A stretch of 56,822 nucleotides of DNA, from positions 1 through 56,822 of IMG/VR virus record IMGVR_UViG_3300002307_000005. One strand, given 5' to 3'. Of the stretch, positions 3,151 through 45,627 are shown one piece after another. Every line of letters starts with the position of its first letter. The stretch's first letter is position 1. The position numbers and the translations under genes are program-made. The notes under the pieces are model-generated. The model saw only the letters and a program-made list of their open reading frames with translations, had not been told where the DNA came from and ran no database searches. Origin of the DNA: a virus (Duplodnaviria; Caudoviricetes).

Positions 3151-3182
3151 TGGGACAATCGACACAACCATAGAAGGTCAAA

Positions 3183-3824: not shown

Positions 3825-3826
3825 TC

Positions 3827-5059
3827 ATGACCGCATATGTAAATCCGTTCACAGGCCAGACGGTCAGCCCATCCTCAGTCAGCTACGAAGCACTGTCTTT
3901 GACGGCCAATTTGTCGCTGCAATGGCCAATCAACGGCATCACTGGCACCCCCGCCAGCAGCATCATTGATGTGACGGCCACATCGTCTGGCACTGGCACT
4001 GGCTGGTTGTTGGAGTTGCCACCCGCCACTCAAGTGTCACCCGGCCAGTCCGTGATTGTGCGCAACGTCGGATCGCAACTGTTCACCGTGACGGACAACG
4101 GTGGCAACACCATCGTGGCCGTGTCGTCCGGCGTGGCCGAGTTCATCTTCTTGGTGGACAACACCACGGTGAACGGCACATGGGCGTCCGTGGTGTTTGG
4201 CGCTGGCACATCGAACGCCAATGCAGGAGCCTTGGCTGGTTACGGCCTGACGCCAATTGGCCTGACGCTGAACCAAGCCTACAACATCACCAACTACTAC
4301 TCCAACGCAGCATTGGCGGCAGCAAACCGTGCGCAGTTCAACGTGTGGTCTGGTGGAGTTGGTGCGTTCACGCTGCCTTCCGCAACATCCGTGGGCAACA
4401 ACTGGTTCACGATCATTCGGAATAACGGCACAGGCATCTTGACGTTGACCCCTGCAGGCACCGACACCATCGACGGCAACGCAAACATGCAGTTGCAGTT
4501 GACCGAATCGCTGGTGATCGTGTCCAACGGATCAACCGGGTACAACACCTACGCCTACGGTCGATCCAACGCCTTTGCATTCACGCAACTGGCTCAGGTG
4601 GTGACTGGCGGCACGCTGACGCTGACATCCGCACAGGGTGCCAACATCATTCAGGAATACTCGGGCACCCTGACGTCCAACCAGATCGTTGTGCTTCCAT
4701 CAACCGTGCAGCTTTACTCGCTGCAGAACGGCACCTCTGGTGCTTACACCATGACGTTCAAGACGGCTGTGGCTGGCGGATCGACGGTGGCAGTTGGTCA
4801 AGGCCAGACGGCCTTTGTTGTGTGTGATGGCACCAACGTGTACAGCACCACAAGCAACACCGCCAGTTCATTCACAGCTATCACGTTGGCCCCCGGCTCC
4901 GTTGGCGCTCCGTCCATGAACTTCCAAGGCAACACCAACACTGGCGTGTACCTGCCAGCATCCAACCAACTTGGCTTTGCCATCAATGGTGTCCAGCAGA
5001 TGCTGCTGACATCCAACGGTCTGACGGTGCTCAACGGTATCTCAGGCGGCACTTTCTGA
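3827..5059 (+). CDS. Tail structural/fibre protein
   Basis: T/S/G/N-rich beta-type sequence with repeated LP.A..VG modules. Confidence 0.6.
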   Translation: MTAYVNPFTGQTVSPSSVSYEALSLTANLSLQWPINGITGTPASSIIDVTATSSGTGTGWLLELPPATQVSPGQSVIVRNVGSQLFTVTDNGGNTIVAVSSGVAEFIFLVDNTTVNGTWASVVFGAGTSNANAGALAGYGLTPIGLTLNQAYNITNYYSNAALAAANRAQFNVWSGGVGAFTLPSATSVGNNWFTIIRNNGTGILTLTPAGTDTIDGNANMQLQLTESLVIVSNGSTGYNTYAYGRSNAFAFTQLAQVVTGGTLTLTSAQGANIIQEYSGTLTSNQIVVLPSTVQLYSLQNGTSGAYTMTFKTAVAGGSTVAVGQGQTAFVVCDGTNVYSTTSNTASSFTAITLAPGSVGAPSMNFQGNTNTGVYLPASNQLGFAINGVQQMLLTSNGLTVLNGISGGTF

Positions 5060-5069
5060 AGGACGCAAT

Positions 5070-7088
5070 GTGACCGCAAAGGTAATTCAGCTTCAAGTCA
5101 AGCCCGGTATCCAACGGGATGGCACGCAGTTCGCCGCCCCGACCTACGTGGATGGCGAATGGGTGCGCTTCCAGAACGCCCTGCCACGCAAGATCGGTGG
5201 GTACAAGGGTGTGTTCTTGAACGCCAGCGGGATTTCTCGCGGCATGACCATGACCTCGACCAACGGCATCAACTACGTGGTGTCTGGATACAGCCTCGGC
5301 TTGGAGCAGTGGTACACCGACAACGACGATGGCGTGGGTTTTGGCCCGGTGTCATACGCCATATATGGCGGCGCAGTGAAGGTGCAGATCGTCAACGCTG
5401 GCTCGGCATACACCAACGGAACTTACACTGCCGTGCCTTTGACTGGCGGCACCGGGACAAGCGCTCAAGCCACGGTCGTGGTGGCTGGCGGTGTCATCAC
5501 CAGCGTGACGGTGACTGCCGCAGGCACTGGATACTCGGTGGGCGACATCTTGAGTGCATCGTCGGCATCCATTGGTGGCACAGGCTCCGGCTTGTCGTTG
5601 CTGCTGCTGCAGAACACTTTGTGGACTGGTGGCAACAGTACACTTTGGCAGTTTGACATTGGCTACGATTCCACTGGAGGGGCCAACAATAACATCATCG
5701 CGCACCCCGGCCAAAACCTGATCAACATTGACTCGACCGTCAACACGCGCCCACTGTTTGGCCCATTCCCCGGCACCACGCTGGCACCTGTTGGCGTGTT
5801 CACGGCGTCAGGCACAACCACAAACACCTCCACCAGTGTGACCTTCACCAGCACCATCGTGTCGATTGGAGCGGGTCTGTCGGTTTCTGGGACGGGCATT
5901 CAGGCCGGAACAACCATCGTCAGTGCCTCCGTGGTGGGTAGCGTCTTCACAGCCGTTTTGAGCCTGCCTGCGACGGCCTCCGGCACGGTGACCCTGACAT
6001 TTGACGCCAACATTTCGGTGTCCGGTGGCGTGGTGATGCTGCACCCGTACCTGTTCGTGTACGGCAACAACGGCTTGATTCAGAACTCGTCGGCTGGCAA
6101 CTTCAACGACTGGGTTTCTGCGGACGCCAACGCCAACAACGTGTCCACTGGCAAGGTGGTCAAGGGTCTACCCCTGCGCGGTGGTACAACATCGCCTGCA
6201 GGCCTGTTCTGGACGCTTGACTCACTGGTTCGCGTGACGTACAGCCCCAGCACCGTGAACGGTCTGAACTTCTACTGGAAATATGACCTGCTGACCAGCC
6301 AGACATCCATCATGTCCAGCCAGTGCGTCATTGAGTACGACGGCATCTTCTACTGGGCCGCTGTGGATCGCTTCTTGTCCTACAACGGTGTGGTGCAGGA
6401 AATCCCGAACAACTTGAACCAGAACTACTTCTTCGACAACCTGAACTACGCCCAGCGCCAAAAAGTCTGGTGTACCAAGGTGCCTCGCTGGGGTGAAATC
6501 TGGTGGTTCTACCCCAAGGGTGATGCCACAGAATGCACCGACGCCATCATCTACAACGTGCGCGAGAAGACGTGGTACGACGCTGGCGAGGCACCGGGCG
6601 CACGCCGCTCGGCTGGAACATTCTCTGAAGTGTTCCGCAAGCCTATCTGGGCCGGGAATGGAGTCAACTCCACTGGCAAGTACACCCTCTGGCAGCATGA
6701 GACTGGCACCGACGAGGTGTACACCACCAACGTGAACGCCATCCGCTCGTCCTTTGAGACGAACAACTTGGGCTGGGTCACTGGTGGCCCCGGCAACCCA
6801 CAACTGTCCGGCGACAACCGCTGGCTGCGCATCGAACGTGTGGAACCTGACTTCGTCCAAACCGGGGACATGAACCTGTACGTGACTGGCCAAGGCTACG
6901 CCGATGCCCAAGTTCAGACCTCAGACCCCTATGTTTTCACGCCATCGACCCTTAAAATCGACTTGCGTGAGCAGCGCCGCTTGTTGCGTTTGAAGTTTGA
7001 ATCGAACACATACAACGGCGACTACTATCTTGGCAAAGTGCTGATCAGCGCGGATATGGGCGATGAGCGGGGAACTGCAAATCCATGA
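5070..7088 (+). CDS. Tail tubular protein B / P22 gp10-like nozzle protein
   Basis: 672 aa, aromatic-rich C-terminal half (WGEIWWFYP, IIYNVREKTWY); position before ejection proteins. Confidence 0.6.
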   Translation: MTAKVIQLQVKPGIQRDGTQFAAPTYVDGEWVRFQNALPRKIGGYKGVFLNASGISRGMTMTSTNGINYVVSGYSLGLEQWYTDNDDGVGFGPVSYAIYGGAVKVQIVNAGSAYTNGTYTAVPLTGGTGTSAQATVVVAGGVITSVTVTAAGTGYSVGDILSASSASIGGTGSGLSLLLLQNTLWTGGNSTLWQFDIGYDSTGGANNNIIAHPGQNLINIDSTVNTRPLFGPFPGTTLAPVGVFTASGTTTNTSTSVTFTSTIVSIGAGLSVSGTGIQAGTTIVSASVVGSVFTAVLSLPATASGTVTLTFDANISVSGGVVMLHPYLFVYGNNGLIQNSSAGNFNDWVSADANANNVSTGKVVKGLPLRGGTTSPAGLFWTLDSLVRVTYSPSTVNGLNFYWKYDLLTSQTSIMSSQCVIEYDGIFYWAAVDRFLSYNGVVQEIPNNLNQNYFFDNLNYAQRQKVWCTKVPRWGEIWWFYPKGDATECTDAIIYNVREKTWYDAGEAPGARRSAGTFSEVFRKPIWAGNGVNSTGKYTLWQHETGTDEVYTTNVNAIRSSFETNNLGWVTGGPGNPQLSGDNRWLRIERVEPDFVQTGDMNLYVTGQGYADAQVQTSDPYVFTPSTLKIDLREQRRLLRLKFESNTYNGDYYLGKVLISADMGDERGTANP

Positions 7089-7321
7089 GCGTAACCTACG
7101 ATCCCCGGAACATGGAATGGGACTTGTACTGCAGTCTGATGTGCGAGTTGTTCGCATCCAACCAGATCGGTACAGTCCCCGAGGATCAGTGGAGAGAATG
7201 GGTGGACGGCATCAACGGGATCGGGTACTTTGGCCAATCGGCCATACCCGATCAACGCATGTGCGAAACATGGCAGGACTGGGCAGAACAAATGGTCGGC
7301 ATCATGAGCATCGGATCGTAA
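7085..7321 (+). CDS. Hypothetical virion protein
   Basis: ATGA-coupled 78-aa Trp-rich ORF. Confidence 0.6.
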   Translation: MSVTYDPRNMEWDLYCSLMCELFASNQIGTVPEDQWREWVDGINGIGYFGQSAIPDQRMCETWQDWAEQMVGIMSIGS

Positions 7322-7324
7322 AAA

Positions 7325-10300
7325 ATGAAGCAAACAAACATTGATACCTTTGAGGATTTTGTCAACCCACTGAACGGTCTTGGCTCTGTTAACAACGTCG
7401 CTTTGGCTTCTGGTTTGAGTGGAAACAACACCACTACGCTGACACCCGCGCCACTTGCGAATACCACTGCCAACACTACCGCGAACACCGCTGCGGACAC
7501 TACGCTGGCAAATAACAACACGGTCGCAGCGACCACGACTGCGCCAGCCGTTGTGTCGGGTGCCTTGCCAGTCGCAGGCGGCGCAGCAGACCCAATTTCT
7601 GATTTGTACACGCAGTACGCCGGGCGTGCTGCCGACCCGAGCGGACTTGCCTACTGGCGTCAGCAATTTGGCGATACGGTTGACCCAAGTGAGGTGGCAA
7701 CATTCCAACGTGCTGTTGCAGACAATGTGGCAAAGGGCGTGGAGTCAACAGCCACTGCCACCAACTACAACCCGTACTTCACAGCCAACCCGGATGTGGC
7801 TGCGGAGTACCTGAAAAACACGCAAGGCATGACGCCTGAGCAGTTTGCCGCCTACCACTACAACACATACGGCAAGAATGAAGGCCGTGCTGCGCCAACA
7901 GGGGGCACCACCACAACCTCGTCACCAGTGGAAGGGGTCAACACTTCACCGGATGCATTGGCCGCAGCAAACGCTGCGAACACACCCACAACTGCACCAG
8001 CAGCCAACCCCACTTCAAACACGTCTGCTGCTGGAGCAAGTTCAACGCCGACAACGGTGGAAGATTTGTATAGAACCTATTTGGGGCGAGAGCCAGATGC
8101 GGCTGGTTTGGCGCACTGGAAAAGTCTTTTTGGCGATACTGTTGACGACACTGAGCGCAGAGATTTCATTCAAAACGCTTTTGGCGAAATGAGCACAACT
8201 CATGCCGGGTCTTTGAATCCGTTGGCTTCTCAGATTTTGGCAACAAGCGACCCAACAAAATGGACAGGGCAAGGCTGGGGGTCTGCGCAAAACAATGCAT
8301 ACGACATGGCCCGTATCATGGCAAGTATTGGGATTACTGACCTCAAAGATTTTGGGCAATTGCCGACGTACCAAAATCTTGAGACGCAATACACATACAA
8401 CGGACAGCCCGCCACACAAAATCCAGACGGCAGCTTTTCCGTACATGAACTTGTGGGTATGACGGGCTACGACGGTGAGCCAATTTATCAAGACAAAACA
8501 GTTGCGGCCAAAGATGTCACAACACACTACGGAACAACAAGTTTTTCTGGAGGGGAGAATGGGGATTTCTATTTCTCTCCCGTCGATCAATCCAAAGTCA
8601 TTACAAAGGATGGACAACCAGTAATTCAAACTGGCACCACTTACGGTAATACCAAGACTGGTCAGGCCGTTCCAAGCAGTTACGGCGAGCGCCAGACAGG
8701 CAACGCATGGGGTGGTACGTTTGCTGGCGATGGAAACACTGGCTACCGTGTTCAGTACGATGCGCAGGGTAACCCGCACTTCTACACGACATATGCGTCC
8801 AGCAATTCGTTGATGAATTTGCTGGCCGACAACCCCGTTCTTAACGTAGCGGCAAACTTGGCTGCTGCGTATTTTGGTGGCCCAGCAGGTGTTGCTGCGT
8901 TGAATGCCGCAGAAGGCAAATCTGGCGAAGATGTTTTGAAGGCTGGGGTGACGGCGTACCTTGGTGGGGAACTAACCAATGGCTTGACAGACGGGACGAG
9001 CGTTGGCCCCGAGGTAACTAGCCCAACCATTGCCGACCTAACAGGAACCAATGCGCCACTGAACTTTACTGGCGCTGGCAACGGTGCGTGGCTTGGTGCC
9101 ACGGAAGACCTTGCAGCGGCAGGAGCAAGCACCGCCAGCGCTGGAGGTTTGCCATCGACCGCAGGAAACATTGCAAACACCACCACGGGCGCTTTGGATG
9201 CTGCAAACACTGCAGGCAATGCGGTCAGCACAGCAGGAACGGCTGGTGCAAACGCCGCCAGCACAGCCGCCAGCACAGCAAGTTCGGCAACAGCCGGGGC
9301 TGCAGGAACTGCTGCAGGAACAGCAGGTCAGTCAATGGCCATGCGTATTGGCACATCACTTGGTCTTGAGGGCACCGCCGCCAACATGGCAGGCAATGCG
9401 CTGCTGCGTGGTGGCTTGTCTTCGGCCATGGGCGGCAACTTTGCAACTGGTGCCGTCACGGGCGGATTGATGGGCTTCGCAAGCCCTCAACAGCTTGGTG
9501 GTTTGGTTACAGAGAGCCTGTCACAGGCTGGCATCGAAATCCCCGCAGGCGCTGCCGCACAGACTGCCATCGGCAACACGATTTATGGCACGCTCATGAA
9601 TGGTGGCGACCTGAAGCTGGCACTCAAGAATGCCGTGGCTGGATACGCTGGCGACAAGGTGGCCAACTCTGACACAGTCAGCAACTTCATCAAAGACAAC
9701 AACATCAGCGGCACCCTTGCAGCCACCATTCGCGGTGGCTTATCCGGTGCTGCATCGTCGGCTGTCAAGGGCAACGACATCCTGACTGGTGCTGTGTCTG
9801 GCGCTGGCGCTTCGGCTGTATCCAACTTGGCCAATGGGTATCTCAAGGACGCTGGCGTGAGTCCAGCCAACGCCACGGCACTCTCCAAGGCCGCGTCTAC
9901 TTTTGCTGCGCAGAAGTTGTCTGGTGCCACCGACTACAACGCGTTTGTGGCTGCAACACTGGCTGGTGGTTCTGCATCGCTGGCAAAACAGGCTGTGCAG
10001 GACATCAACAAAATTCCAGCGGAGAACATGGGCAATCAGTCCAGCATTCGCGCCAGCACGGACGTGGATGCGCTGCAGCGTCAATTTGACACCCAATACA
10101 CGGACGCCACAGCCGCAGGCGGATTGCCAAACAGCACAGACACCGTGCAAACACCCGGTGGTCTGCAGTTGGCCGCTGCAGGTGCTGGTACAGCCTCTGA
10201 CGCAGGCAACGGCATCTTCCGTGTTGAAGGCTCTGGCGCACCGATTTACGCTGACAGCAACAATGCCTCTGGCGTTCGACCACCGCCCGGCTATGCCCTT

Positions 10301-11758
10301 GCTGCAAGTGACGATCCAGTGATGCAGGAGCCTGCACGCTACGACGCAAATGACAGACTGTTGCCGAAGTCAGACGGCACTTATTACGACATCACTCAAA
10401 ATGCTTGGTTTAAACCCTCGGGTGGGTTTGACTTGTCAGGGGTAACCGATCACTCGAATCTTTTCGGCACACCATCCTTGACCTCTGGTACAGCCATTGA
10501 CACTACTGGTGCTTTGGGTGGTGGGAACGGGACTTCTGGCGGTGTTAGCACGCCTGCAGACGATGCCGGAACAATGACCATCATCAGTGATCGTCCGCGA
10601 ACCATCAATGTTGATGACGCGCCAGAAATGGTCATCACCTCGGATCGGCCAACGAAACCCGTCGTCACTACAACAGACGATGACACACCAGAAATGGTTA
10701 TCACTGCAGATCGTCCAGTTCCGCCTGACGATCCCACCATTACACCAACGGTGATCACACCCCCTGTGGTAACACCCCCACCTGTAGTCACTCCGCCACC
10801 CGTGGTGGCTCCGCCACCCGCAGTCGTTCCGCCTGCACCTCCTGCTGTGAAGGTGCCAACTCCAACCACGGGTGGTGGCTCCTACACTGAGCAAAAACTT
10901 AACTCTTCACCTCAATTCCTTGCAGGAGCACCCGTGTACCAAAAGGCACTGCAGTTGGCCGCGCTGCATCAACTCTTCAACTCGCTCACACCTGAGATGC
11001 GTCAGGTGCTGGCAGAACGCGGCATTGAGCCACCAAAAGAAGAACATCCTTCCAAAGAAAAATCTTTTGAAGAGCAGGCGGCAGAATATGGTTACAAACC
11101 ACAAGCCCCGATCATGGAAGCGTCTGGTGGCAGCATTCAGGACTATTTGACCCCCAAATTTGCTTCATCCGCCCCCACCAGTTTGGCGGCAGCGCCTATG
11201 ACCGAACAAAAGTCTCGCATGGGTGCCCTGACGCACCTGAGCCAAGGCCCACTGAAGGCCTCCAGACCGCTCGGAGGACTTGCCCAAGGTGGATTGCCCC
11301 ACAAGTACGCCGAAGCGGCTCCAAAGGGCCATAAACCCGAATTCATCACGGGCCTGACTGGCTACTATGCTCAAGGCGACGGCACAGGCCAGTCCGACGA
11401 CATCCCAGCCATGCTGCACGACGGTGACTATGTGATCGACGCAGACGCTGTGGCGGCGCTGGGGGATGGCTCCAGCAAGGCCGGGGCCGAGGCTTTGGCC
11501 AAGTTCCAATCCAAGGTGCCCCATCGTGACGGTGGCCCCGTCCACGGTCGTCCAGTCGCTGCCAAGATCGCAGACGGCGAGTACGTATTCCCTGAAGCGT
11601 TCGTCACGGCCCTTGGCCATGGCGACAACAAGCAAGGCTCCAAAATGCTGGACGCCATGCGTGAAGAACTGCGGGAGCACAAAAGATCGGCTCCTACCAG
11701 TAAAATCCCTCCAAAGGCAAAAAGTCCACTTGACTATCTCAAGATGGCGAAAGGTTAA
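7325..11758 (+). CDS. Large internal virion/ejection protein (1477 aa) with DUF4214-like repeats
   Basis: A/G/T-rich; two LY..Y.GR..D..GLA.W repeats; duplicated C-terminal DG(D/E)YV..ALG.G module. Confidence 0.6.
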   Translation: MKQTNIDTFEDFVNPLNGLGSVNNVALASGLSGNNTTTLTPAPLANTTANTTANTAADTTLANNNTVAATTTAPAVVSGALPVAGGAADPISDLYTQYAGRAADPSGLAYWRQQFGDTVDPSEVATFQRAVADNVAKGVESTATATNYNPYFTANPDVAAEYLKNTQGMTPEQFAAYHYNTYGKNEGRAAPTGGTTTTSSPVEGVNTSPDALAAANAANTPTTAPAANPTSNTSAAGASSTPTTVEDLYRTYLGREPDAAGLAHWKSLFGDTVDDTERRDFIQNAFGEMSTTHAGSLNPLASQILATSDPTKWTGQGWGSAQNNAYDMARIMASIGITDLKDFGQLPTYQNLETQYTYNGQPATQNPDGSFSVHELVGMTGYDGEPIYQDKTVAAKDVTTHYGTTSFSGGENGDFYFSPVDQSKVITKDGQPVIQTGTTYGNTKTGQAVPSSYGERQTGNAWGGTFAGDGNTGYRVQYDAQGNPHFYTTYASSNSLMNLLADNPVLNVAANLAAAYFGGPAGVAALNAAEGKSGEDVLKAGVTAYLGGELTNGLTDGTSVGPEVTSPTIADLTGTNAPLNFTGAGNGAWLGATEDLAAAGASTASAGGLPSTAGNIANTTTGALDAANTAGNAVSTAGTAGANAASTAASTASSATAGAAGTAAGTAGQSMAMRIGTSLGLEGTAANMAGNALLRGGLSSAMGGNFATGAVTGGLMGFASPQQLGGLVTESLSQAGIEIPAGAAAQTAIGNTIYGTLMNGGDLKLALKNAVAGYAGDKVANSDTVSNFIKDNNISGTLAATIRGGLSGAASSAVKGNDILTGAVSGAGASAVSNLANGYLKDAGVSPANATALSKAASTFAAQKLSGATDYNAFVAATLAGGSASLAKQAVQDINKIPAENMGNQSSIRASTDVDALQRQFDTQYTDATAAGGLPNSTDTVQTPGGLQLAAAGAGTASDAGNGIFRVEGSGAPIYADSNNASGVRPPPGYALAASDDPVMQEPARYDANDRLLPKSDGTYYDITQNAWFKPSGGFDLSGVTDHSNLFGTPSLTSGTAIDTTGALGGGNGTSGGVSTPADDAGTMTIISDRPRTINVDDAPEMVITSDRPTKPVVTTTDDDTPEMVITADRPVPPDDPTITPTVITPPVVTPPPVVTPPPVVAPPPAVVPPAPPAVKVPTPTTGGGSYTEQKLNSSPQFLAGAPVYQKALQLAALHQLFNSLTPEMRQVLAERGIEPPKEEHPSKEKSFEEQAAEYGYKPQAPIMEASGGSIQDYLTPKFASSAPTSLAAAPMTEQKSRMGALTHLSQGPLKASRPLGGLAQGGLPHKYAEAAPKGHKPEFITGLTGYYAQGDGTGQSDDIPAMLHDGDYVIDADAVAALGDGSSKAGAEALAKFQSKVPHRDGGPVHGRPVAAKIADGEYVFPEAFVTALGHGDNKQGSKMLDAMREELREHKRSAPTSKIPPKAKSPLDYLKMAKG

Positions 11759-11760
11759 AA

Positions 11761-12882
11761 ATGGCAAACCTCCTGCAAAGTTCCCAAACTCAAGCCACCA
11801 CGGCTCCGAGTTTTTTTACCGACTATCTCAACAACATTGCCAAAACTGGGCAGACACAAGCTGGGATCAATGCACAAGGTCAATACGATCCGACGCTTGG
11901 TGCTCAGTACGTCGGTGCCCAGCCCCTGCAACAGCAAGCCTTTGATCAGGTCAGTGATGCCGCCTCGGCCTTCAAGCCCACGCTGACTGCGGCGGGCAAC
12001 ACGTTGTCGTCGGCAGCAAGCGCATCAAGCCCACTGTCTGCCGCTTCGCCATACCTGCAGGAGGCCAGCGGCGATGTGGGTGCTGCCGCATCCGGTCTCA
12101 TGAGTCCGTACATGACCAATGTGGTCAACGCGATTGGTGACACTGGCCAGCGCAACATCATGCAGAACTTGGCACCGCAAGCCACTTCAGGCGCGGTGGG
12201 TTCTGGCCAGTTTGGCTCCAAGCGCGGTGCCGAAGTTCTTGGTCAGACAATCAGCAATGCCGACCGCGACATCCTGAACCAGCAGTACCAAGCGATGAAT
12301 ACGGGCTACAACACAGCCCTGCAAACCGCCTTGGCACAAAAGCAACTGGAAGGAACGCTGGGCAGCACTGCAGGTCAGTTGACCTCTGCAGGAACTCAAA
12401 ACCTGATCAACGCTGGTGCGCAGCAGGGCCAGTTGGCATCGACCAACCAAGCCCTGAACTTGGCTGACATCAACGCTTTGGCGACCTTGGGTGGCCAGCA
12501 GCAGACCATTGCTCAGAACAAGGAACTGTTCCCGCTGACCAACCTGTCGACGTTGTCAGGGTTGATTCGCGGCTACAACGTGCCAACAACGACCACAACA
12601 ACCGCCGAGTCTTCGCCGCTGTCCGCATTGGCTGGCCTCACTGCTGGCGCCGCTGGCTTGTTCACGCCGGGGCCAAATGGCGTCACACCATGGACTGGTT
12701 TGAGCACCGCCTTGGGGAATGCTGGCAACACGGTGTCTGGCTGGTTTGGAAACACCGGAAGCACTGGCGATTTGACAGCCAATGCACCCGTTATCTCTGG
12801 CGGAAACCTGACTGGCCCCGGCTCAGATTATTCGGGCGGCACCGTCACAGGTGCGGATGGCACCGTGCTGTATCAGCCGTAA
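11761..12882 (+). CDS. DNA transfer (ejection) protein
   Basis: Q/A/G-rich, MSPYMTNVV and GQFGSKRG motifs, hydrophobic C-terminal segment. Confidence 0.6.
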   Translation: MANLLQSSQTQATTAPSFFTDYLNNIAKTGQTQAGINAQGQYDPTLGAQYVGAQPLQQQAFDQVSDAASAFKPTLTAAGNTLSSAASASSPLSAASPYLQEASGDVGAAASGLMSPYMTNVVNAIGDTGQRNIMQNLAPQATSGAVGSGQFGSKRGAEVLGQTISNADRDILNQQYQAMNTGYNTALQTALAQKQLEGTLGSTAGQLTSAGTQNLINAGAQQGQLASTNQALNLADINALATLGGQQQTIAQNKELFPLTNLSTLSGLIRGYNVPTTTTTTAESSPLSALAGLTAGAAGLFTPGPNGVTPWTGLSTALGNAGNTVSGWFGNTGSTGDLTANAPVISGGNLTGPGSDYSGGTVTGADGTVLYQP

Positions 12883-12898
12883 CTCAAAGGATTGAATC

Positions 12899-14374
12899 AT
12901 GTCGACCCAAGAAATCAAGGCCGCACTGGCCTCCGATCCGTCAAAGATCAATCCCACTGGTGCGCAGCCAGAAGATTTGTCCGAGTACCAACAGTCTTTG
13001 CAGGAGCAAATCAGGGCTTTGGAGAAGCGGTACGAAAACCCCAACTGGTTCAAGGTGGCCGCAGGCTTTTTGAAGCCTCAGTTGGGCGGCTTTGCTGCGT
13101 CTCTTGGATCGGCCACCGAGGCGCTTGGTGAGAATGTCGAGCAGCAACGTGCTGCAGCACTTCCAATCGCCCAGATGCGCTCACAGTTGGCTCAGTCCAA
13201 AATTTTGACGGGCCAAAACAAAACGCAGTCCGAGGAATTCGAGGCGTGGCGTGCCACAGGCAAGCCAATGGACGCTCCAACGTACAGCCGCATCGTGTCG
13301 TTGAACCCCGAGTCGCCAGTGGCCAAGGCTGCGCAGAAGTTCTACGAAGGTGCCAAGTCCACATTGGAAATCACCACCGGGGCCACAGCCGCGCAAGGCA
13401 AAGACCCGATGATGAACGTCATGCACTTGGTCTACGGTGGCAAGCCGATGAACGAGCAGCAGATGGCTCAGGTCGAGCAGACCATCAATGCCAACAAGCC
13501 ACCACAGATCGACCAGAACACTTGGAACGGTCTGGATCGCTACGCCAAGATGGAGGCTGCACGCGAGTACGCCAAAGCACAAACCGCAATCGGCCTGTCC
13601 GAAGAGGAGAAGTCACGCGAACAAGCCAAGGGTGCATACGACCGCATGCCACTGCTGCGCAACATCCGAGAACTGGCGCTTGGCCAAGGCATTCCAGAAA
13701 CCAAGGATGCGTCTGGCAAGACTGTTTCTGGCCAAGAACAGATGGCCAACGCCCTCAATTATTTTGGTGGCAGCAATCCCATCGAAGTGCTGGCGCGTGC
13801 CGCTGCTGATGGCAAGCTGGGTGACAAGTTGGCCGGGTTTGACACTTATGCCCGTCAAATGAATATGTCGCCACAAGTGCGCGATGACTTCCAAAAGCTG
13901 GTCAAGCTGCTGGCGGAAAATCAAGTGTCTTTGCGCAACGCTTCGACCAATCCAACGGATGCATTTTCGTCAATGCAGACAATGTCGTCGCCCAACATTG
14001 GCAACTCGCAAAAGTCTTTGGTGACGCTGGTGGACTTGATTGGTCACGGCGAAAAGCATGCTCAAGAGCGCCACAACTACATGATCAACAGCAACGTGCC
14101 TGCGCGTCAGTTGCGGCTTGATCCCAAGTTCAAGACCTTGGAGGCTGGCTTTGCTGACGAGCACTCGCGCATTGCCCTGCAAGACCCTAGCAAGGCCACG
14201 CCATCGTGGTACTCGCCTCGCACTGGCACGGAGGCCGCGCCTGCCGCAGCCGTTCGCCCAGCATCCACGGCACCTGCAGCATCTGGCTCCAAGCCAGCAT
14301 TCCAGTTGCCTTCTGGCTTTGAGCGTGATCCAACCGACCCAACAGGCCGACGCATTCGGAGAGTTCAGCAATGA
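12899..14374 (+). CDS. Ejection protein
   Basis: Helical 491 aa, GGFAASLGSA amphipathic N-terminal motif; synteny. Confidence 0.55.
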   Translation: MSTQEIKAALASDPSKINPTGAQPEDLSEYQQSLQEQIRALEKRYENPNWFKVAAGFLKPQLGGFAASLGSATEALGENVEQQRAAALPIAQMRSQLAQSKILTGQNKTQSEEFEAWRATGKPMDAPTYSRIVSLNPESPVAKAAQKFYEGAKSTLEITTGATAAQGKDPMMNVMHLVYGGKPMNEQQMAQVEQTINANKPPQIDQNTWNGLDRYAKMEAAREYAKAQTAIGLSEEEKSREQAKGAYDRMPLLRNIRELALGQGIPETKDASGKTVSGQEQMANALNYFGGSNPIEVLARAAADGKLGDKLAGFDTYARQMNMSPQVRDDFQKLVKLLAENQVSLRNASTNPTDAFSSMQTMSSPNIGNSQKSLVTLVDLIGHGEKHAQERHNYMINSNVPARQLRLDPKFKTLEAGFADEHSRIALQDPSKATPSWYSPRTGTEAAPAAAVRPASTAPAASGSKPAFQLPSGFERDPTDPTGRRIRRVQQ

Positions 14375-19710: not shown

Positions 19711-20523
19711 ATGACAAGAATGGTGAGACTGGATCAAATCCGCCTTGATGGTGGCACTCAGTTCCGAGACCAAATTGACCAGCACAAGGTCAAAGAGTAC
19801 GCCGACTGCATGCGTGATGGCGCAGAGTTTCCTGCGGTGCAATGCACCTTTGATGGCGTGAACTACTGGCTGTGGGATGGCTTCCACCGCTACTTTGCAA
19901 GCCAAGCCGTGGGCTTCAAAGAGGTGAACGTGGTGTACAAGCCCGGAACTCAAGAGGATGCACAAGACTTGGCCTTGAGCGCCAACGGCAAACACGGCCT
20001 GCCGCGCAACGTGGCCACCCGCCGCAAGCAAGTCGAGACCGCCCTAAGCATGGAGCGCCATGCAGGCAAGTCCGACCGCGAGATTGCCAAGCTGTGCGAT
20101 GTGTCTCACACCTTTGTGGCCAGCATCCGCAACCCCGAGGCCAAGGAAAAGCAAGCCAAGAACCGCGATGCGTCCGCAGCCAAGAAAGTGGAGTCGGACT
20201 CCACCCTGAAGCCCGGTGACGTTGTGCCCACGCAACAAGTGGAGTCGGACTCCACTGACCCCAAGCCATCCATGACGCAGGACTACGGCCCAGACGCTGA
20301 AGAACTGAAAGCGATGGAGTTAGCAGAGCAGGCTGACCGCGAAATGCTGAACAAGATGTTGGAGTCCGACGATGCCTTGGCCACAGCCCACGCCGAGGTC
20401 AAGCGTCTGAACTTCCTGAACGCTCAGATGGAGGTGCGAATCGCTGCCTTGATGAACGAAAAGAACGCTGCCGTGAAGCAGATCAAAACCCTCGAGAGCC
20501 AACTGAAGAAAGCCAAAAAATGA
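19711..20523 (+). CDS. ParB-like N-terminal (CTPase) domain + HTH + coiled-coil protein
   Basis: DGFHRYFA fits GxxRxxA; AN..HG; HTH SDREIAKLCDVSHTFVASIR; GGAG RBS. Confidence 0.8.
   Translation: MTRMVRLDQIRLDGGTQFRDQIDQHKVKEYADCMRDGAEFPAVQCTFDGVNYWLWDGFHRYFASQAVGFKEVNVVYKPGTQEDAQDLALSANGKHGLPRNVATRRKQVETALSMERHAGKSDREIAKLCDVSHTFVASIRNPEAKEKQAKNRDASAAKKVESDSTLKPGDVVPTQQVESDSTDPKPSMTQDYGPDAEELKAMELAEQADREMLNKMLESDDALATAHAEVKRLNFLNAQMEVRIAALMNEKNAAVKQIKTLESQLKKAKK
20188..20204. repeat. 17-bp palindrome copy 2 (GTGGAGTCGGACTCCAC)
   Basis: Inside parB-like gene, encodes VESDST. Confidence 0.95.
20239..20255. repeat. 17-bp palindrome copy 3
   Basis: 51 bp after copy 2, encodes VESDST again. Confidence 0.95.
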
Positions 20524-22049
20524 CCGAAGTCCTAGCACAGCGAGTGTGTGATGATGGATCAACATTCCCACCACCACGCCCCTTCCAACTTGATGCCCAC
20601 GCACAACTGCGTCAGGGCTTCAAAGCTGGCCACAAGAACCAACTGATCATGGCCCCCACCGGGGCTGGCAAGACCTACCTTGGCCTGCGCATCTGCAACG
20701 AAGCGATGCAAAAGGGCAAGCGTGCTGTGTTCCTGTGTGACCGCACCACGCTGATCAACCAAACCTCTGCTGCGGCTGACGGGTACGGCCTCAGAGACCA
20801 TGGCGTGATCCAAGCCCAACACTGGCGTCGTCAACCCGAGCACCTGCTGCAGATTGCATCGGCCCAGACCATCGCCAAGCGTGAATACTGGCCGCAGTTG
20901 GACGTGCTGGTGGTTGACGAGGCTCACACGCAACTGAAGGTCTGGACTGAGTTTGCGCAGAAGACAGAGGCGGCTGTGATCGGCCTGTCTGCCACTCCGT
21001 TCTCCGTGGGTCTGGGAAAGATTTTCACGAACCTGATCAACGCCACCACCATGCATGACTTGACCGAGTCTGGTGTGCTGGTGCCCATGCGGATTTTCTC
21101 TTGCACCAAGCCCGACATGGCAGGCGCTGCCACTGCTGGTGGTGAGTGGACTGACAAGGCCGCAGAAGAGCGCGGTATGGACATCGTGGGGGACGTAGTC
21201 ACTGAGTGGCTGAAGTTTGCCGAGAACCGCAAGACCATCGTGTTTGGTGCCACCATCAAGCACTGTGAAGAGTTGGCCCAGCAGTTCATCAGCCAAGGCG
21301 TCATGGCCGCTGTATTCACGTCTGAGACCACCGCCAAGGAGCGTGAAGCCCTGTTACAGGACTACCGCCGCCCTGACAGCTTCATCCGTGTGCTGATCAG
21401 CGTGGAGGCCTTGGCCAAGGGTTTTGACGTGCCCGACGTTGGCTGCGTGTGTGATGCACGCCCACTGCGCAAGTCGCTGTCCACCGCCATCCAGATGTGG
21501 GGCCGTGGCCTGCGCTCGTCACCACAGACTGGCAAGACCGACTGCTACTTGCTGGACTTCAGCGGCAACATCATTCGCTTCGCTGAAGACTTCACCGAGG
21601 TGTTCTTCAACGGTCTGGAGTCACTGGACTCGGGCGACAAGCTGGACAAAAAAATCCGCAAGGACGAAGAGGTCGAGTTGAAGGGTTGCCCCAAGTGCGG
21701 CTACAAGCCATTCAGTAAGCGTTGCATGGCGTGCGGGTTTGAGCATGTGAGCCAGAGCACGTCTGCAGCACTGCCCGGTCAGATGCAGGAAATCACGATT
21801 GGTGAGGGCAAGAACAAAAAAGTTCTGGCACCAAACGCCGAGAATTTATGGCACCAGTGCGTGGCCTACGCAAAGCACCACAGCGCCCCTGAAAAGCAAC
21901 AGGGCAGGGCTTACCACCTTTTCAAGAAAATCACTGGCCAAGACCCCATGTGGCGCTTCACAACGGCACCCAGTGTTGAAATCACGCGCAACGTGTACAA
22001 CAAGATCACGCAACTCAACATGGCGTACAAGAAGGGGCTGCAAAAATGA
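20520..22049 (+). CDS. Superfamily 2 DEAD/DEAH-like helicase with C-terminal Zn finger
   Basis: APTGAGKT, DEAH, GLSATP, GFD.P, QMWGRGLR, CPKC..CMAC. Confidence 0.9.
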   Translation: MTEVLAQRVCDDGSTFPPPRPFQLDAHAQLRQGFKAGHKNQLIMAPTGAGKTYLGLRICNEAMQKGKRAVFLCDRTTLINQTSAAADGYGLRDHGVIQAQHWRRQPEHLLQIASAQTIAKREYWPQLDVLVVDEAHTQLKVWTEFAQKTEAAVIGLSATPFSVGLGKIFTNLINATTMHDLTESGVLVPMRIFSCTKPDMAGAATAGGEWTDKAAEERGMDIVGDVVTEWLKFAENRKTIVFGATIKHCEELAQQFISQGVMAAVFTSETTAKEREALLQDYRRPDSFIRVLISVEALAKGFDVPDVGCVCDARPLRKSLSTAIQMWGRGLRSSPQTGKTDCYLLDFSGNIIRFAEDFTEVFFNGLESLDSGDKLDKKIRKDEEVELKGCPKCGYKPFSKRCMACGFEHVSQSTSAALPGQMQEITIGEGKNKKVLAPNAENLWHQCVAYAKHHSAPEKQQGRAYHLFKKITGQDPMWRFTTAPSVEITRNVYNKITQLNMAYKKGLQK

Positions 22050-22945
22050 CCACCTTCATTGACTTTGCACGCGCACACGGGGTGGACATCGACCCCGGCA
22101 AGCTGTACGCCTCCGACAAGATTCGCCGCACTGGCACCGTCGACAAACCACGCTCGGGCAACGGCGCGTACTACTGGGATGGCCAGCGCGGCTGGGTGTT
22201 CGATTGGTCTGGCGAGGCACGCACGATCTGGTACGAAGACCCCAACGCCAAGCCATGGACGCTGCAGGAGAAGCAGGACTGGATGCTCAAGCGCCAGACT
22301 GCTGCCGCGCAGAAGGATCGCTCCTACGACATCGCGGCACAGAAGGCCGACATCACCTTGCGTTCTGCCAAGATGGCCGCGCACGACTACCTGCACCTCA
22401 AGGGCTTTCCTGACGAAAAAGGCTTGGTGCTGGACGGTGAGTTGCTGGTGCCCATGCGCAACGTCGTGACCAACAAGCTGCAGGGCTACCAGAAGATTTT
22501 CTGGGACATGGACGAGCGCAAGTGGGAGAAGAAGATGCTCCCCGGCATGCGTGCCAAGAACGCCGTGCTGTTCATGGGCGACAGAAGGGCCGAGGAGGCG
22601 TGGTTGGTCGAAGGGTATGCCACAGGCCTATCCGTTCACGCCGCGCTGCGCAGCGTGGGTTCTGGTGCGTCTGTGGTGGTGTGCTTCAGTGCATCGAACA
22701 TGATTCAGGTGGCAGACCAGATTCCCGGCAAGCGGTTCATCTTTGCCGACAACGATCCATCCAAGAAGCATCCAGACACTGGCGCAGAAGTCGGAATGAC
22801 TGGCGAAAGGTCAGCCATCCAGACTGGCCTGCCTTGGACGATGGCCGATACTGTAGGATGGGACGCCAATGACCTTCATAAAGCCGCTGGACTGTTTTCG
22901 GTGGTGAAGTGCATCATGGGAGCAAAGCATGCATTACAACAATAA
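22046..22945 (+). CDS. TOPRIM-domain DNA primase
   Basis: EGYATGLS, FADND and DAND motifs. Confidence 0.85.
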   Translation: MTTFIDFARAHGVDIDPGKLYASDKIRRTGTVDKPRSGNGAYYWDGQRGWVFDWSGEARTIWYEDPNAKPWTLQEKQDWMLKRQTAAAQKDRSYDIAAQKADITLRSAKMAAHDYLHLKGFPDEKGLVLDGELLVPMRNVVTNKLQGYQKIFWDMDERKWEKKMLPGMRAKNAVLFMGDRRAEEAWLVEGYATGLSVHAALRSVGSGASVVVCFSASNMIQVADQIPGKRFIFADNDPSKKHPDTGAEVGMTGERSAIQTGLPWTMADTVGWDANDLHKAAGLFSVVKCIMGAKHALQQ

Positions 22946-23165
22946 ATACGAGCGGAACCAACTGATCTATGATCATCACGTTCATTTGGGTCGGACGATG
23001 AGAAGCCTTGCGGAAGAGTTTGGTGTGGGCCAACAACGAATTTCGCAAATCGTCGCCAAGGAGAGACGGAAAATTGTTCGCACACCTCCAAACTATGTCC
23101 TGAAAGAACTTTTGCCTTTGAAAAGTTTTTTGGTGGAATTGGCGGAAATGCCAGTAGAATCCTGA
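22929..23165 (+). CDS. Small HTH protein
   Basis: ERN..IY...RTMRSLAEEFGVGQQRISQIV HTH pattern. Confidence 0.6.
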   Translation: MHYNNKYERNQLIYDHHVHLGRTMRSLAEEFGVGQQRISQIVAKERRKIVRTPPNYVLKELLPLKSFLVELAEMPVES

Positions 23166-23370
23166 CCCTTCTGGAAGGTCGTGCTGGTGGACTGAAAACA
23201 CCAGCGCCAACACGCATGGGGTCTGTGCCGAGTTGCACAAAACGCTTGAGTCTCCTAGGAACGACGAATAGCGGAACAGACCCCAGTCGTGTTGGTGGTT
23301 AAGCGAAGGGACGCCAGCCGATTGGGGCTGGAGGGTCACGCAGGATCGGGGGTTCTCGGTCGCCACCAAC

Positions 23371-23427
23371 AACCAACACGGCTGACGAGGCGTGATGCGC
23401 CGAAACACGAAAGTGTCCCGTGGAGTT
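23371..23427 (+). ncRNA. Type I hammerhead ribozyme
   Basis: Stem I CACGG/CCGTG; core CTGACGA; stem II GGCGT-GAT-GCGCC; GAAA; stem III CAC-GAAA-GTG; GUC cleavage triplet ending at 23417. Confidence 0.88.
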
Positions 23428-23604
23428 TCCCATGCGGGGGAATAACTGGAAACCTTAGCGGTTCAAACCTAAGAACCTTCGCAAGAGGGCGTTTAGGCCG
23501 TGGGTGTGCAACGAACCGTGACTGCACACATCTTGCCCCGCAACTTTTCCGTGTATACTCCGCCCATCATGAAATCCCAAGTGATCACCCCCCGACCGAC
23601 TGAG

Positions 23605-23680
23605 CAGTGTGTAGCTCAGATGGTAGAGCGCGTGCTTTGGGAGCATGAGGTCGCAGGTTCGATCCCTGTCACACTGACCA
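23605..23680 (+). tRNA. tRNA-Pro(UGG)
   Basis: Cloverleaf, acceptor CAGTGTG/CACACTG, anticodon TGG, CCA end. Confidence 0.92.
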
Positions 23681-23733
23681 ATTCAAATTGCCGATCCAAT
23701 AATTCAACGACGAATTATTGATCCCCGTTTCGC

Positions 23734-23820
23734 GGGGATGCGGCGCAGAAGGTGTGGCGCAGCAGACTGTAAATCTGCCGCTCAAAAGGCAAGTTGGTTC
23801 AAATCCAGCCATCCCCACCA
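23734..23820 (+). tRNA. tRNA-Tyr(GUA)
   Basis: GGGGATG/CATCCCC, GCAGA-CTGTAAA-TCTGC, long variable region, CCA. Confidence 0.88.
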
Positions 23821-23844
23821 AACCTTCAATCCCCCAAAGTTTTT

Positions 23845-23922
23845 TGTGTACGAGCACGCATGGTGTGTGCGCTCCGCTGTTAACGGAGAATGAGCTTGGT
23901 TCGATCCCAAGGTACACAGCCA
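23845..23922 (+). tRNA. tRNA-Asn(GUU)
   Basis: TGTGTAC/GTACACA, CTCCG-CTGTTAA-CGGAG, G73, CCA. Confidence 0.85.
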
Positions 23923-23927
23923 GTTGT

Positions 23928-24001
23928 ATCTCGCTCGTCCAATGGCAGGACTCTGGATTCCAAATCCAGCTATGGTGGTTCGAGTCCATCGCGGGATGCC
24001 A
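23928..24001 (+). tRNA. tRNA-Trp(CCA)
   Basis: ATCTCGC/GCGGGAT, CTGGA-TTCCAAA-TCCAG, CCA. Confidence 0.88.
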
Positions 24002-24002
24002 A

Positions 24003-24079
24003 GCCCTCGTAGCTCAGTTGGTAGAGCACCTGTTTTGTACTCAGGAGGCCGGGCGTTCGATTCGACCCCGAGGGCACCA
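24003..24079 (+). tRNA. tRNA-Thr(UGU)
   Basis: GCCCTCG/CGAGGGC, anticodon loop TTTGTAC, CCA; bulge in T-stem. Confidence 0.8.
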
Positions 24080-24088
24080 AAAAAAATG

Positions 24089-24119
24089 TTGACACACCAA
24101 GACCAGTTGCGCTTATAAT
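24089..24119 (+). promoter_or_regulatory. Sigma70-type promoter
   Basis: TTGACA-N19-TATAAT with upstream A-tract; spacer longer than optimal. Confidence 0.55.
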
Positions 24120-24153
24120 TCGCCCAGCTAGGCGTGGAAGCCGATGCGAAGCG

Positions 24154-24250
24154 AAAGCCGTTAAGTCAAACTCCGACCCCTTTGGGGTGGCGGGTCAGCC
24201 TAAAAAACTGATGCGTTCTTCCACCGGGGTTTGTCTTAACGGTTTTTTTT
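24154..24250 (+). ncRNA. Second C4-like antisense RNA / attenuator
   Basis: ~22-bp closing stem AAAGCCGTTAAGTCAAACTCCG/CGGGGTTTGTCTTAACGGTTTT; two internal hairpins; CTTCCAC complementary to GTGGAAG at 24134-24140; U-tract. Confidence 0.6.
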
Positions 24251-24651
24251 CGTCTGTACTTTCACATCCAGCTATGCCTCAGACGTTTTGGTGACTACGA
24301 ACGTTTTGATCTGAGGCGAGAGCCGTAAAAACTGTCGATGCGGCAAGCGCGGGTGGGGAAGCGCTGATTGTTGAGTAAACCGCCAGAACGGAACCGGGTC
24401 TAGAGATTAGGGTGCTCCGGGGCAACGGCAACAATCAGGTCGAGCTTGGTCAGTGCGCTAAGAAGGGGTCTCACAATGGGCCTAAATGTCTGACAGCCAC
24501 GGCGGAACATTGAGAGATGACCGTGGCCAATGATTGCGACGAATACGACCGACGTGATATTGATCTTCAGCCAACCCCGACTCTTCGGGCTAGGGGTGGG
24601 CTGTGTCCAGAATGCTCCTTCCACTCCCTCCGTGATAAACAGGAACTCAGA

Positions 24652-25119
24652 ATGTCAGAAGTAAAAAACTTGTCTCAAAGTCAGGACTGGCAAAGTGCAA
24701 CCCCAAAGCAAAGGTTGGATTTCGTTGTCAAGGCAAGGTCTGACACAAAAGATCGTCGTCAATCCGAGAAGGCGGAAAAAGAACGGCTGAAGGTTTTGGC
24801 CAAGCAGCAAAAGCCTAAAAAGAAGCGTGCCGTCAGGAGAGCCAGAACCACCAATTTACCCAGCACGCCAAGCGTCACATCCAAAGCATTTCTGGAGTCG
24901 TTTGAGTGGCGTCGATTGCGCATGCAGGCGCTCAAGAAGTACAGCCCACGGTGCATGTGCTGCGGTGCAACGCCACAGGATGGCGCAGTCATGAATGTGG
25001 ATCACATCAAGCCACGCAAATTGTTTCCCGATCTGGCGCTGGACATCAACAACTTACAGATTTTGTGCCATGAGTGCAACCACGGCAAAGGCAACTGGGA
25101 TCAAACCGATTGGCGTTAA
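24652..25119 (+). CDS. HNH endonuclease
   Basis: CMCCG...VDHIKP...NLQILCHECNHGKGN. Confidence 0.85.
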   Translation: MSEVKNLSQSQDWQSATPKQRLDFVVKARSDTKDRRQSEKAEKERLKVLAKQQKPKKKRAVRRARTTNLPSTPSVTSKAFLESFEWRRLRMQALKKYSPRCMCCGATPQDGAVMNVDHIKPRKLFPDLALDINNLQILCHECNHGKGNWDQTDWR

Positions 25120-45608: not shown

Positions 45609-45627
45609 TCAATACTTGGAGAATGAC

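Follow-up and report, generated by a model that had tools for sequence, protein, structure and literature searches.

The window analyzed here, i.e., the whole 56,822-bp stretch corresponding to IMG/VR virus record IMGVR_UViG_3300002307_000005, is a complete virus record with terminal repeats, derived from a freshwater phage. Between a pair of genes encoding a helicase and a primase-like protein and a cluster of tRNA genes, all on the + strand, the window contains a single copy of a unit comprising a predicted type I hammerhead ribozyme and a conserved structured RNA that begins at the predicted cleavage site. With moderate confidence, positions 23377-23544 of the + strand are taken to specify one composite RNA, in which the hammerhead would serve as a self-removing leader that matures the 5' end of a ~127-nt RNA.

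An initial annotation of this region, prepared from the sequence alone, had described a complete type I hammerhead. Indeed, all of the consensus core bases and three stems were found at 23377-23422 on the + strand, arranged as follows:

23377..23381 (+): 5' strand of stem I, CACGG, pairing with C23418-G23422 over 5 bp
23382..23388 (+): core positions C3-A9, CUGACGA, as read from the sequence
23389..23401 (+): stem II hairpin, 23389-23393 pairing with 23397-23401; five pairs in the minimum free energy (MFE) fold
23402-23404 (+): G12-A13-A14, which together with A15.1 form the GAAA at 23402-23405
23405-23408 with 23413-23416 (+): stem III hairpin, including the A15.1-U16.1 pair and a GAAA loop
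23417/23418 (+): predicted cleavage site, between C17 (23417) and C23418, the latter being N1, the first base of the structured RNA

The positions by which a hammerhead is recognized, namely, C3 U4 G5 A6 N7 G8 A9, G12 A13 A14, an A15.1-U16.1 pair and an H17 other than G, are thus all present (23382-23388, 23402-23405 and 23416-23417), as are three covarying helices, with stems II and III being capped and stem I being open. Hammerhead geometry places the predicted cut between 23417 and 23418, the same site as had been proposed earlier, and the distance to the tRNA-Pro gene assigned by ARAGORN to position 23605 is 178 nt, in agreement with the ~180 nt to the tRNA cluster originally given. An AAC/GTT extension of stem I, previously thought able to touch loop II, was not upheld, with GUU 23425-23427 instead belonging to a separate covarying helix, termed P5 below.

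The MFE fold of 23371-23427 corresponds exactly to the hammerhead fold. A loose core pattern applied to the window was uninformative, yielding 14 matches vs. 4.5 expected, and fold energy likewise fails to set the site apart from random sequence. Such a separation was achieved only with a strict descriptor (stems of at least 4, 3, and 3 bp, the core, GAAA, A15.1-U16.1, and H17 not G), which returned a single match on the two strands of the window and none in 300 dinucleotide shuffles. A second hammerhead-like string detected with the loose pattern (CUGAGGA...GAAA, 47514-47561, - strand) fails the strict descriptor and was discarded. The search with Rfam hammerhead models that had been suggested as a check did not recover the element, given that at gathering score only four tRNAs were matched in the window, and that 15 related loci of the B form described below likewise gave no hammerhead match. 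Three further loci (L004, L054, and L055) were without a match to these models at E-values up to 5. The sub-threshold scores say that the models are narrow, rather than that a defining chemical feature is missing.

To place the element among relatives, copies were collected from several sources. A blastn search of 50,697 phage records revealed 72-73% identity over window positions 23401-23544/5 in four phages, namely, Pectobacterium phages Pappous and Taid, Dickeya phage Setonix, and Enterobacter phage SDFMU_EhYP, such that the unit is rare among isolates (4 of 50,697 records). These matches span the sequence found after the cut site; in Pappous and SDFMU_EhYP, the two loci inspected, a hammerhead with different stem sequences is also found directly upstream. 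Searching IMG/VR with a conserved 18-nt string containing 17 specified bases identified 58 loci, one of which (L049) is a chance match. A stricter pattern detected five contigs among 185,579 species genomes, all of them metagenome-assembled genomes (MAGs), and 100 stretches of metagenome contigs, while freeing eight loop positions in the pattern added 9 further viral loci. The search patterns covered exact bases of the 5' half of the structured RNA, with the hammerhead and the 3' half being included in none of them. Once duplicates had been removed, the collection amounted to 147 distinct copies, found on contigs of phages and metagenomes; a scan of the collected loci for further diverged copies found none.

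Conservation of the hammerhead was considered in an alignment of 43 distinct sequences, in which sequences sharing the same extracted stretch were represented once and from which L005, L008, L018, and L049, lacking a core within 80 nt, were omitted. The core bases C, U, G, A, G, and A, together with GAAA and U16.1, are invariant in all 43. Pairing is seen in 94.1% of cells, as compared to 76.2% upon shuffling (a value of 94.1% being reached in 0 of 500 trials) and 28-47% when partners were slid. Double changes were noted at two pairs of stem I, at all four counted pairs of stem II, and at two of the three counted pairs of stem III, the last of these stems being 100% paired. The stem I pair adjoining the core covaries, appearing as CG in 22, GC in 16, and AU in 4 of the sequences.

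Among all copies, three are truncated at a contig end, leaving 144 that could be evaluated. In 124 of these, N1 is immediately preceded by a CUGANGA core accompanied by stems I and III; all three stems are present in 104, and the other 20 have either a U.U flank or a stem II of very few pairs. In the 104 copies with three parsed stems, H17 is C (67), A (34), or U (3) but never G. In the 124, N7 is U (67), C (37), or A (20), and positions 10.1/11.1 are G-C (74), A.A (24), U.U (15), G.U (8), or other (3). The 20 copies without an intact hammerhead comprise 12 in which the two halves of the RNA are joined by 1-3 nt, 5 with a 22-25-nt insert that is not a hammerhead, and 3 with a decayed core (L008, L147, and L114). 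L008 and L147 (and L150, by context) come from phages with 17-29 tRNA genes and contain UUGACAAGAG in place of CUGANGA, as well as a variant 3' half; this looks like a ribozyme in the process of being lost. In L005 and L018, 45-60 nt are inserted within stem III, with the core and cut site being retained.

That the hammerhead-like motif is catalytically dead, or that it is a chance look-alike serving only as a three-way junction, is considered highly improbable. Scores below the Rfam thresholds, an ordinary fold energy, the decayed cores, and the non-canonical 10.1/11.1 positions would all be expected of such a motif. Yet, none of the 300 shuffles yielded a comparable motif, and the catalytic core positions are all kept while every stem varies, with G being avoided at H17.

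In its consensus core, three helices, open stem I, and H17 of C, A, or U, the element resembles described type I hammerheads (Rfam clan CL00010; Perreault et al., 2011; PMC3088659), many of which in bacteria and phages are intergenic, as is that of the window (PMC3088659). Unlike these, stem I of the window element runs straight into a double-pseudoknot RNA rather than into a loop or flanking mRNA, and no contact between the loops of stems I and II or pseudoknot of the kind described in the available passages of that report is evident. The element further differs in its sub-threshold Rfam score, in the A.A or U.U found at 10.1/11.1 in 39 of 124 copies, and in that the 3' strand of stem I is conserved in sequence (N-CGYG), because this strand is also part of the attached RNA. 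The predicted hammerhead is, as such, a new member of the class that is unusual in the sequence constraint on its stem I, in how often A.A or U.U occurs at 10.1/11.1, and in being fused to a second RNA.

The predicted cut site coincides with the first nucleotide of a conserved, covarying RNA of ~127 nt (23418-23544, + strand). This RNA is predicted to be a pseudo-symmetric double pseudoknot with helices P1-P5, composed of the following elements:

23418..23424 (+): N1-CGUGGA, serving before the cut as the 3' strand of stem I
23425-23430 with 23448-23453 (+): P5 hairpin, 100% paired, the middle pair being CG, AU, GC, or UA
23434-23439 and 23440-23447 (+): P5 loop, containing the 5' strand of P4 and the conserved GAAUAACU, respectively
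23458..23464 (+): 5' strand of P3, pairing with 23513-23519 in the P2 loop to give the first pseudoknot
23468..23497 (+): P1 hairpin, recovered by MFE folding; open in the B form described below, where it is formed by the two flanks
23498..23504 (+): N2-CGUGGG, a second occurrence of the N1 motif, at the start of the 3' half; G23502 is the candidate partner of C23446
23504-23510 with 23523-23529 (+): P2 hairpin, the loop of which carries the 3' strand of P3
23530..23544 (+): conserved AUCUUG, the 3' strand of P4 (23536-23541, pairing with 23434-23439 to give the second pseudoknot), and a terminal AAC

The order of helices in the domain is P5, P4, P5', P3, P1, P1', P2, P3', P2', and P4'. Both halves follow a common plan, whereby N-CGUGG leads into a hairpin and the hairpin loop base-pairs with the tail sequence of the opposite half, and it is from this shared plan that we infer the pseudo-symmetry of the domain. 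The CG-GGAG of the N1 segment is invariant in the 43 aligned sequences, an invariance that is partly by construction, given that the exact 5'-half pattern was used for retrieval and only eight loop positions were freed. MFE folding of 23418-23544 returns the nested part of the structure (P4, P1, and P2).

The helices were first read by eye and then subjected to pair counting in 20 of the 29 distinct viral B-form sequences, with those containing large insertions (L005, L011, L018, L041, L046, and L060) and near-duplicates of L014 (L022, L036, and L042) being omitted. In this set, P2 was 99% paired, P3 90.4%, P4 99.2%, and P5 100%, with double changes at 6 of the 7 pairs of P3 and at all 5 pairs of P2. 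For the domain as a whole, 84.4% pairing was observed, as compared to 65.7% in shuffled sequences (0 of 500 reaching the observed value) and 33-46% in slid ones. When mutual information was calculated for 119 distinct rows, obtained from 127 parsed sequences of 138, the top-ranked pairs were helix pairs of the domain. In these rows, P2 is 100% Watson-Crick or GU, while the two variable pairs of P4 are 98-99% Watson-Crick and include four pair types. A closing helix between ACACGG (23376-23381) and CCGUGU (23549-23554) was also considered and rejected, as it is not kept in the nearest relatives, L020, L039, L044, and L170.

Beyond the helices, three further covariations were noted. In 7 copies, corresponding to one A form near the subgroup of the window and six varied B forms, the conserved loop GAAUAACU is replaced by GAAUAAAU, and in 7 of 7 the CGUGGG of the 3' half is changed to CG(C/U)UGG. 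The other 131 of the 138 parsed copies combine C with G (129 with GAAUAACU and 2 with single-substitution loop variants), and mixed cases do not occur. This C:G to A:U switch points to a tertiary pair between C23446 and G23502. Secondly, N1 (23418) and N2 (23498) are the same base in 130 of the 138 copies (G/G in 72, C/C in 45, U/U in 11, and A/A in 2); in a tight group lacking the hammerhead, the combinations are U/U, G/G, A/A, A/A, and one G/A. Conceivably, this covariation in identity reflects a symmetric contact on the pseudo-dyad. Finally, the identity of Y in N1-CGYG goes together with that of a purine in the loop of the 3' half (U-A in 62 and C-G in 35 of 119 rows), a weaker line of evidence in that only two states are seen, which may mirror two subfamilies. 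Because Y pairs within stem I yet tracks this purine, stem I pairing and the tertiary contact of the domain appear to be mutually exclusive.

The sharing of one strand by stem I and the tertiary contacts of the domain is also what would be expected of an allosteric ribozyme or riboswitch, in which the domain would be an aptamer and a small ligand, perhaps symmetric or bound as two copies, would compete with or favor stem I, thereby tuning hammerhead cleavage and downstream expression. Conservation of the sort seen in aptamers and ribozymes, including invariant junction bases and two pseudoknots, would be in keeping with such a role, and symmetric ligands are bound by RNAs with pseudo-two-fold symmetry, the c-di-AMP riboswitch being one example. 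Nonetheless, a riboswitch is deemed very unlikely. When the domain was compared in both permutations with Rfam 15, at gathering score and at permissive E-values, only chance-level matches were obtained (e.g., CRISPR-DR58, 20.3 bits vs. a cut-off of 38), with the riboswitch, twister, pistol, hatchet, drum, and manA models being among those without a match to the 127-nt domain. Moreover, the class of downstream gene is inconsistent, and copies found between tRNA genes have nothing to regulate. In forms ordered as in the window, the hammerhead is transcribed ~100 nt ahead of the 3' half, and therefore a complete aptamer would be absent when the ribozyme first folds.

Copies of the unit occur in two circular permutations, with the 147 copies comprising 39 A forms, 99 B forms, and 9 that were not parsed. 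In the A form, to which the window, Pappous, SDFMU_EhYP, and an enterobacterial group belong, the order is hammerhead, 5' half, P1 hairpin, and 3' half. The B form instead runs from a flank through the 3' half, the joint, and the 5' half to a second flank, and the flanks often pair so as to replace the P1 loop, a pairing seen by eye. Where present, the hammerhead fills the joint between the 3' and 5' ends of the RNA and always lies directly 5' of N1. All 39 A forms contain the hammerhead core (38 with three stems and 1 with a mismatch in stem II), and all hammerhead-less copies are B forms. In 5 of the 12 copies with directly joined halves, a tRNA called by ARAGORN ends 0-9 nt before N2, and four more present T-arm-like sequence by eye. 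Because the domain also occurs without an intact hammerhead, as in the 20 copies broken down above, the best reading is that the structured domain is the primary, functional unit, with the hammerhead being an accessory module at the joint.

Taken together, these features suggest the following course of events in the window. The region would be transcribed together with, or by read-through from, the helicase and primase genes. The hammerhead would fold first and cut during transcription between C23417 and C23418, after which the 5-bp stem I would dissociate. The freed strand CCGUGG, bearing a 5'-OH, could then enter its tertiary place in the double-pseudoknot fold. Such a cut would both define the 5' end of the structured RNA and detach this RNA, along with the tRNA precursor, from the upstream replication-gene mRNA; the 3' end might be generated by RNase P cleavage at tRNA-Pro. 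In the B form, the cut would leave a nicked RNA in two pieces. Perhaps the mature product is stable and compactly folded, binds some factor of the host or the phage, and is expressed alongside phage tRNAs. Formation of circular RNA and ligation in trans were considered and dropped, with each unit containing one cleavage site and no source of a second 5'-OH.

The genes that flank the unit in the window are as follows:

20520-22049 (+): helicase gene (Pfam ResIII, 2e-18; Helicase_C, 2.3e-14)
22046-22945 (+): Toprim primase-like gene (Pfam Toprim_3, 9.3e-06; 26.4 bits, just below the cut-off of 27.2)
23605..24079 (+): five tRNA genes, Pro, Tyr, Asn, Trp, and Thr (five called by ARAGORN, four by Rfam)

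The helicase and primase-like genes (20520..22945) are the probable source of read-through transcription. No terminator-like sites were found in 22800-24600, and the interval from the primase gene to the first tRNA gene of the window gave no promoter-like call. The relative MW202545 lacks ~170 bp that are present in the window (23375-23544), inserted after CAACAAC and ending in CAAC. At this empty site, before the tRNA cluster, MW202545 contains a sigma-70-like promoter (TTTACA-18-TACAAT, 10/12; L002 3220-3249); at ~23545-23560 of the window, the -35 portion has given way to the element, leaving only a -10-like TATACT. With genes upstream on the + strand, no terminator, and a promoter only at the empty site of MW202545, read-through followed by cleavage is plausible. 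The strand and context are, as such, consistent with the suggestion of the initial annotation that the cut may separate an RNA from the parB-helicase-primase transcript. In that annotation, the RNA cut away was either the tRNA precursor or a neighboring structured RNA. The second of these options stands, given the structured RNA at the cut site and the hammerhead core that precedes it in 39 of 39 copies with the order seen in the window. No support was obtained for a function bound to the tRNA precursor itself, since a same-strand tRNA gene lies directly beside the unit in only 32 of 138 distinct loci (within 6 kb in 44 of 138), and since the unit of SDFMU_EhYP lies between capsid and tail genes. 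In L029 and L066, the unit occupies the entire spacer between two tRNA genes. The tRNA-Asn (GTT) gene of the window (23845-23922, + strand) was called by ARAGORN and not by the Rfam tRNA model at gathering score. No conserved neighboring protein emerged from an all-vs-all BLAST of 1,990 open reading frames (ORFs) from 138 loci, where no family was present in more than 13 loci and the top cluster comprised antisense ORFs over the element.

Several observations weigh against the proposal that the hammerhead is a self-removing leader. B forms are less well explained by simple release, with the 5' strand of stem I remaining tethered after the cut. At E<=10, the best Rfam hammerhead line for the window is Hammerhead_3 in another register, with 14.5 bits vs. 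a cut-off of 48.5 and an E-value of 3.3, and the fold energy of 23371-23427 is ordinary (z -1.01), being equaled by 29 of 200 shuffles. No conserved contact between stem I and loop II is visible, and loop II sequences are not conserved among the 43 aligned sequences. For this reason, activity of the predicted ribozyme at cellular Mg2+ is not assured, although the attached domain might itself supply the tertiary contact of stems I and II. The A.A or U.U at 10.1/11.1, the two-state nature of the Y-purine covariation, and the partly built-in invariance of the 5' half belong here as well, as does the fact that retrieval by exact 5'-half bases misses diverged members. P1 at a fixed register was only 51.7% paired in the 20 B forms, because the flank helices differ in register. 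Lastly, in four sequencing runs that are, or are guessed to be, of RNA, coverage is limited to tRNA stretches at 90-99% likeness, probably from other organisms, such that these runs are uninformative for 23340-23515.

Context also bears on the possibility that the unit is a self-cleaving insulator, a natural counterpart of the synthetic RiboJ insulator. Here, the ribozyme would cut polycistronic phage RNA and the fold would shield the new 5'-OH end of the downstream product from end-dependent RNases, with no function in trans; in B forms, the products of cleavage would remain paired via P3 and P4, and this protection would extend to the upstream product, which ends in a 2',3'-cyclic phosphate. 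Consistent with such a role, the unit is always intergenic and co-directional in annotated cases, with antisense tRNA genes within 500 nt being found in 0 of 138 loci. In T7-like phages, it follows a terminator-like hairpin (seen by eye rather than in a terminator scan) and precedes a tail gene. In SDFMU_EhYP, one such phage, the hammerhead and domain cap a long outer stem in the interval that separates the capsid gene from the tail tubular gene (L003 1455-1670); phiKDA1 shares this ~18-bp outer stem, there holding an unrelated 41-nt cargo (L168 ~565-660), and SDFMU_Pec is without both the outer stem and the unit. The outer stem may be a recurrent processing hairpin of these phages, speculatively an RNase III site. 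An insulator is, however, held to be unlikely: many invariant unpaired bases and a tertiary pair kept across phages of very different G+C content exceed the needs of a stable plug, and hammerhead-less copies within tRNA arrays cut nothing.

The differences in presence of the unit between close relatives (the window vs. MW202545, and SDFMU_EhYP vs. phiKDA1 and SDFMU_Pec) would also be expected of a small mobile element, in which a unit of ~170-200 bp spreads as DNA and the hammerhead serves the element, e.g., by limiting harm to host transcripts. Near-identical enterobacterial copies in at least four different flanks, the rarity of the unit in isolates, and the presence of an HNH endonuclease gene ~1 kb downstream in the window would be in line with mobility. 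Against this, no associated transposase, integrase, or reverse transcriptase was found among the ORFs of the 138 loci, and target duplications or terminal repeats are not consistent across subfamilies. Ordinary phage mosaicism would account for the patchy distribution, while strong purifying selection on the RNA fold argues for a function at the RNA level. The mobile-element explanation is thus regarded as distinctly unlikely. The HNH gene (24517-25119, + strand; Pfam 1.5e-08) lies ~440 nt past the tRNA cluster, and a GIY-YIG gene with NUMOD3 (1e-09) is found at 45616-46206 (+ strand). These free-standing homing-endonuclease-like genes may add to the patchiness of the region among relatives.

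A bolder version of the composite-RNA proposal, tentative and short of probable, holds that the ~100-nt pseudo-two-fold domain represents a new functional class of RNA, the folding of which is gated by a built-in hammerhead that must cut and yield its stem I strand. Such an RNA may bind a ligand or protein, possibly acting as an anti-defense decoy or sponge, or may itself be catalytic. If true, this would be a natural ribozyme-gated RNA switch, with permuted forms spread over phages whose hosts may span several bacterial phyla; host range is judged from the four isolates and from MAG labels, the latter being a poor guide where phage contigs are concerned. Considered apart from gating, the domain has a fair chance of being a new RNA class. 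Searches of the literature, including with conserved-motif strings that gave only chance matches, yielded no published description of the attached RNA; the alignments of Perreault et al. (2011) and Weinberg et al. (2017) could contain members. A link between the drum motif and hammerheads was dropped, as the available passages of PMC5737381 do not report it, and the available portion of Eckert et al. (2023; PMC10085705) concerns RNA replicon motifs from metatranscriptomes and not this RNA.

Comparison with other RNAs of phage tRNA regions reveals both likenesses and differences. Theta ribozymes sit directly 3' of tRNAs, and the helix order of the nested double pseudoknot of the hepatitis delta virus (HDV) ribozyme differs from that of the domain described here. 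HDV-like theta ribozymes are small self-cleaving ribozymes in phage tRNA regions that, according to the available passages, are thought to define RNA ends (PMC10879173), and the window hammerhead is likewise a small, predicted self-cleaving ribozyme within such a region. It differs in belonging to another ribozyme class and fold and in that it would set the 5' end of a non-tRNA RNA, while 106 of 138 copies are not beside a tRNA gene. HDV-family Rfam models gave no match in the window at E<=10, and the window unit lies 5' of the tRNA genes.

GOLLD and ROOL are large, ornate RNAs housed in phage tRNA arrays (PMC12286853, as far as its available text describes them). Like these, the present element is a complex-folded phage non-coding RNA (ncRNA) of undefined function found in tRNA arrays; unlike them, it is much shorter, at about 100 nt once the hammerhead is discounted, folds differently, carries a ribozyme, and is not known to multimerize. 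One 91.6-kb IMG/VR contig, L016, contains both GOLLD and this element: positions 1800-13150 hold the element, GOLLD (171 bits), a permuted transfer-messenger RNA (tmRNA; 108 bits), and 21 ARAGORN tRNA genes, and the region is a dense ncRNA island. As in two-piece permuted tmRNA (RF04321), one fold is presented in two gene orders, and the permuted form of the element would likewise be cut at the joint, with the pieces being held by base pairing. Unlike permuted tmRNA, the element contains no tRNA-like or mRNA-like part according to ARAGORN and Rfam, neither of which calls a tRNA or tmRNA in 23371-23604 of the window, and its own ribozyme, in place of the RNases of the cell, is predicted to make the cut. 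The tRNA gene cluster of phage T4 likewise encodes small, stable non-tRNA RNAs of undefined function, RNAs C and D, that are processed with the cluster; these are not known to be associated with a ribozyme.

Hammerheads are known in phages, with their purpose being mostly open. In the present case, placement exactly where the ends of a permutable fold meet suggests a well-defined task that can be put to the test, providing a concrete model whereby a ribozyme would mature, and perhaps gate, another structured RNA. The attached RNA bears the hallmarks of sophisticated function, in that it is doubly pseudoknotted, circularly permuted in nature, and invariant at many unpaired bases, with a tertiary pair that covaries. 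Carried by many unrelated phages, it is a small addition to the puzzling non-tRNA RNAs of phage tRNA arrays, and its occurrence in cultured Pectobacterium and Enterobacter phages makes genetics possible.

In Pappous, a 38-aa coding sequence annotated as a "hypothetical protein" overlies the structured RNA (L001 1511-1627), and the match in Taid lists a "hypothetical protein" as well. An ORF of 104 aa similarly covers the element in the window (23289-23603). The ORFs over the structured RNA in Pappous and the window are probably spurious.

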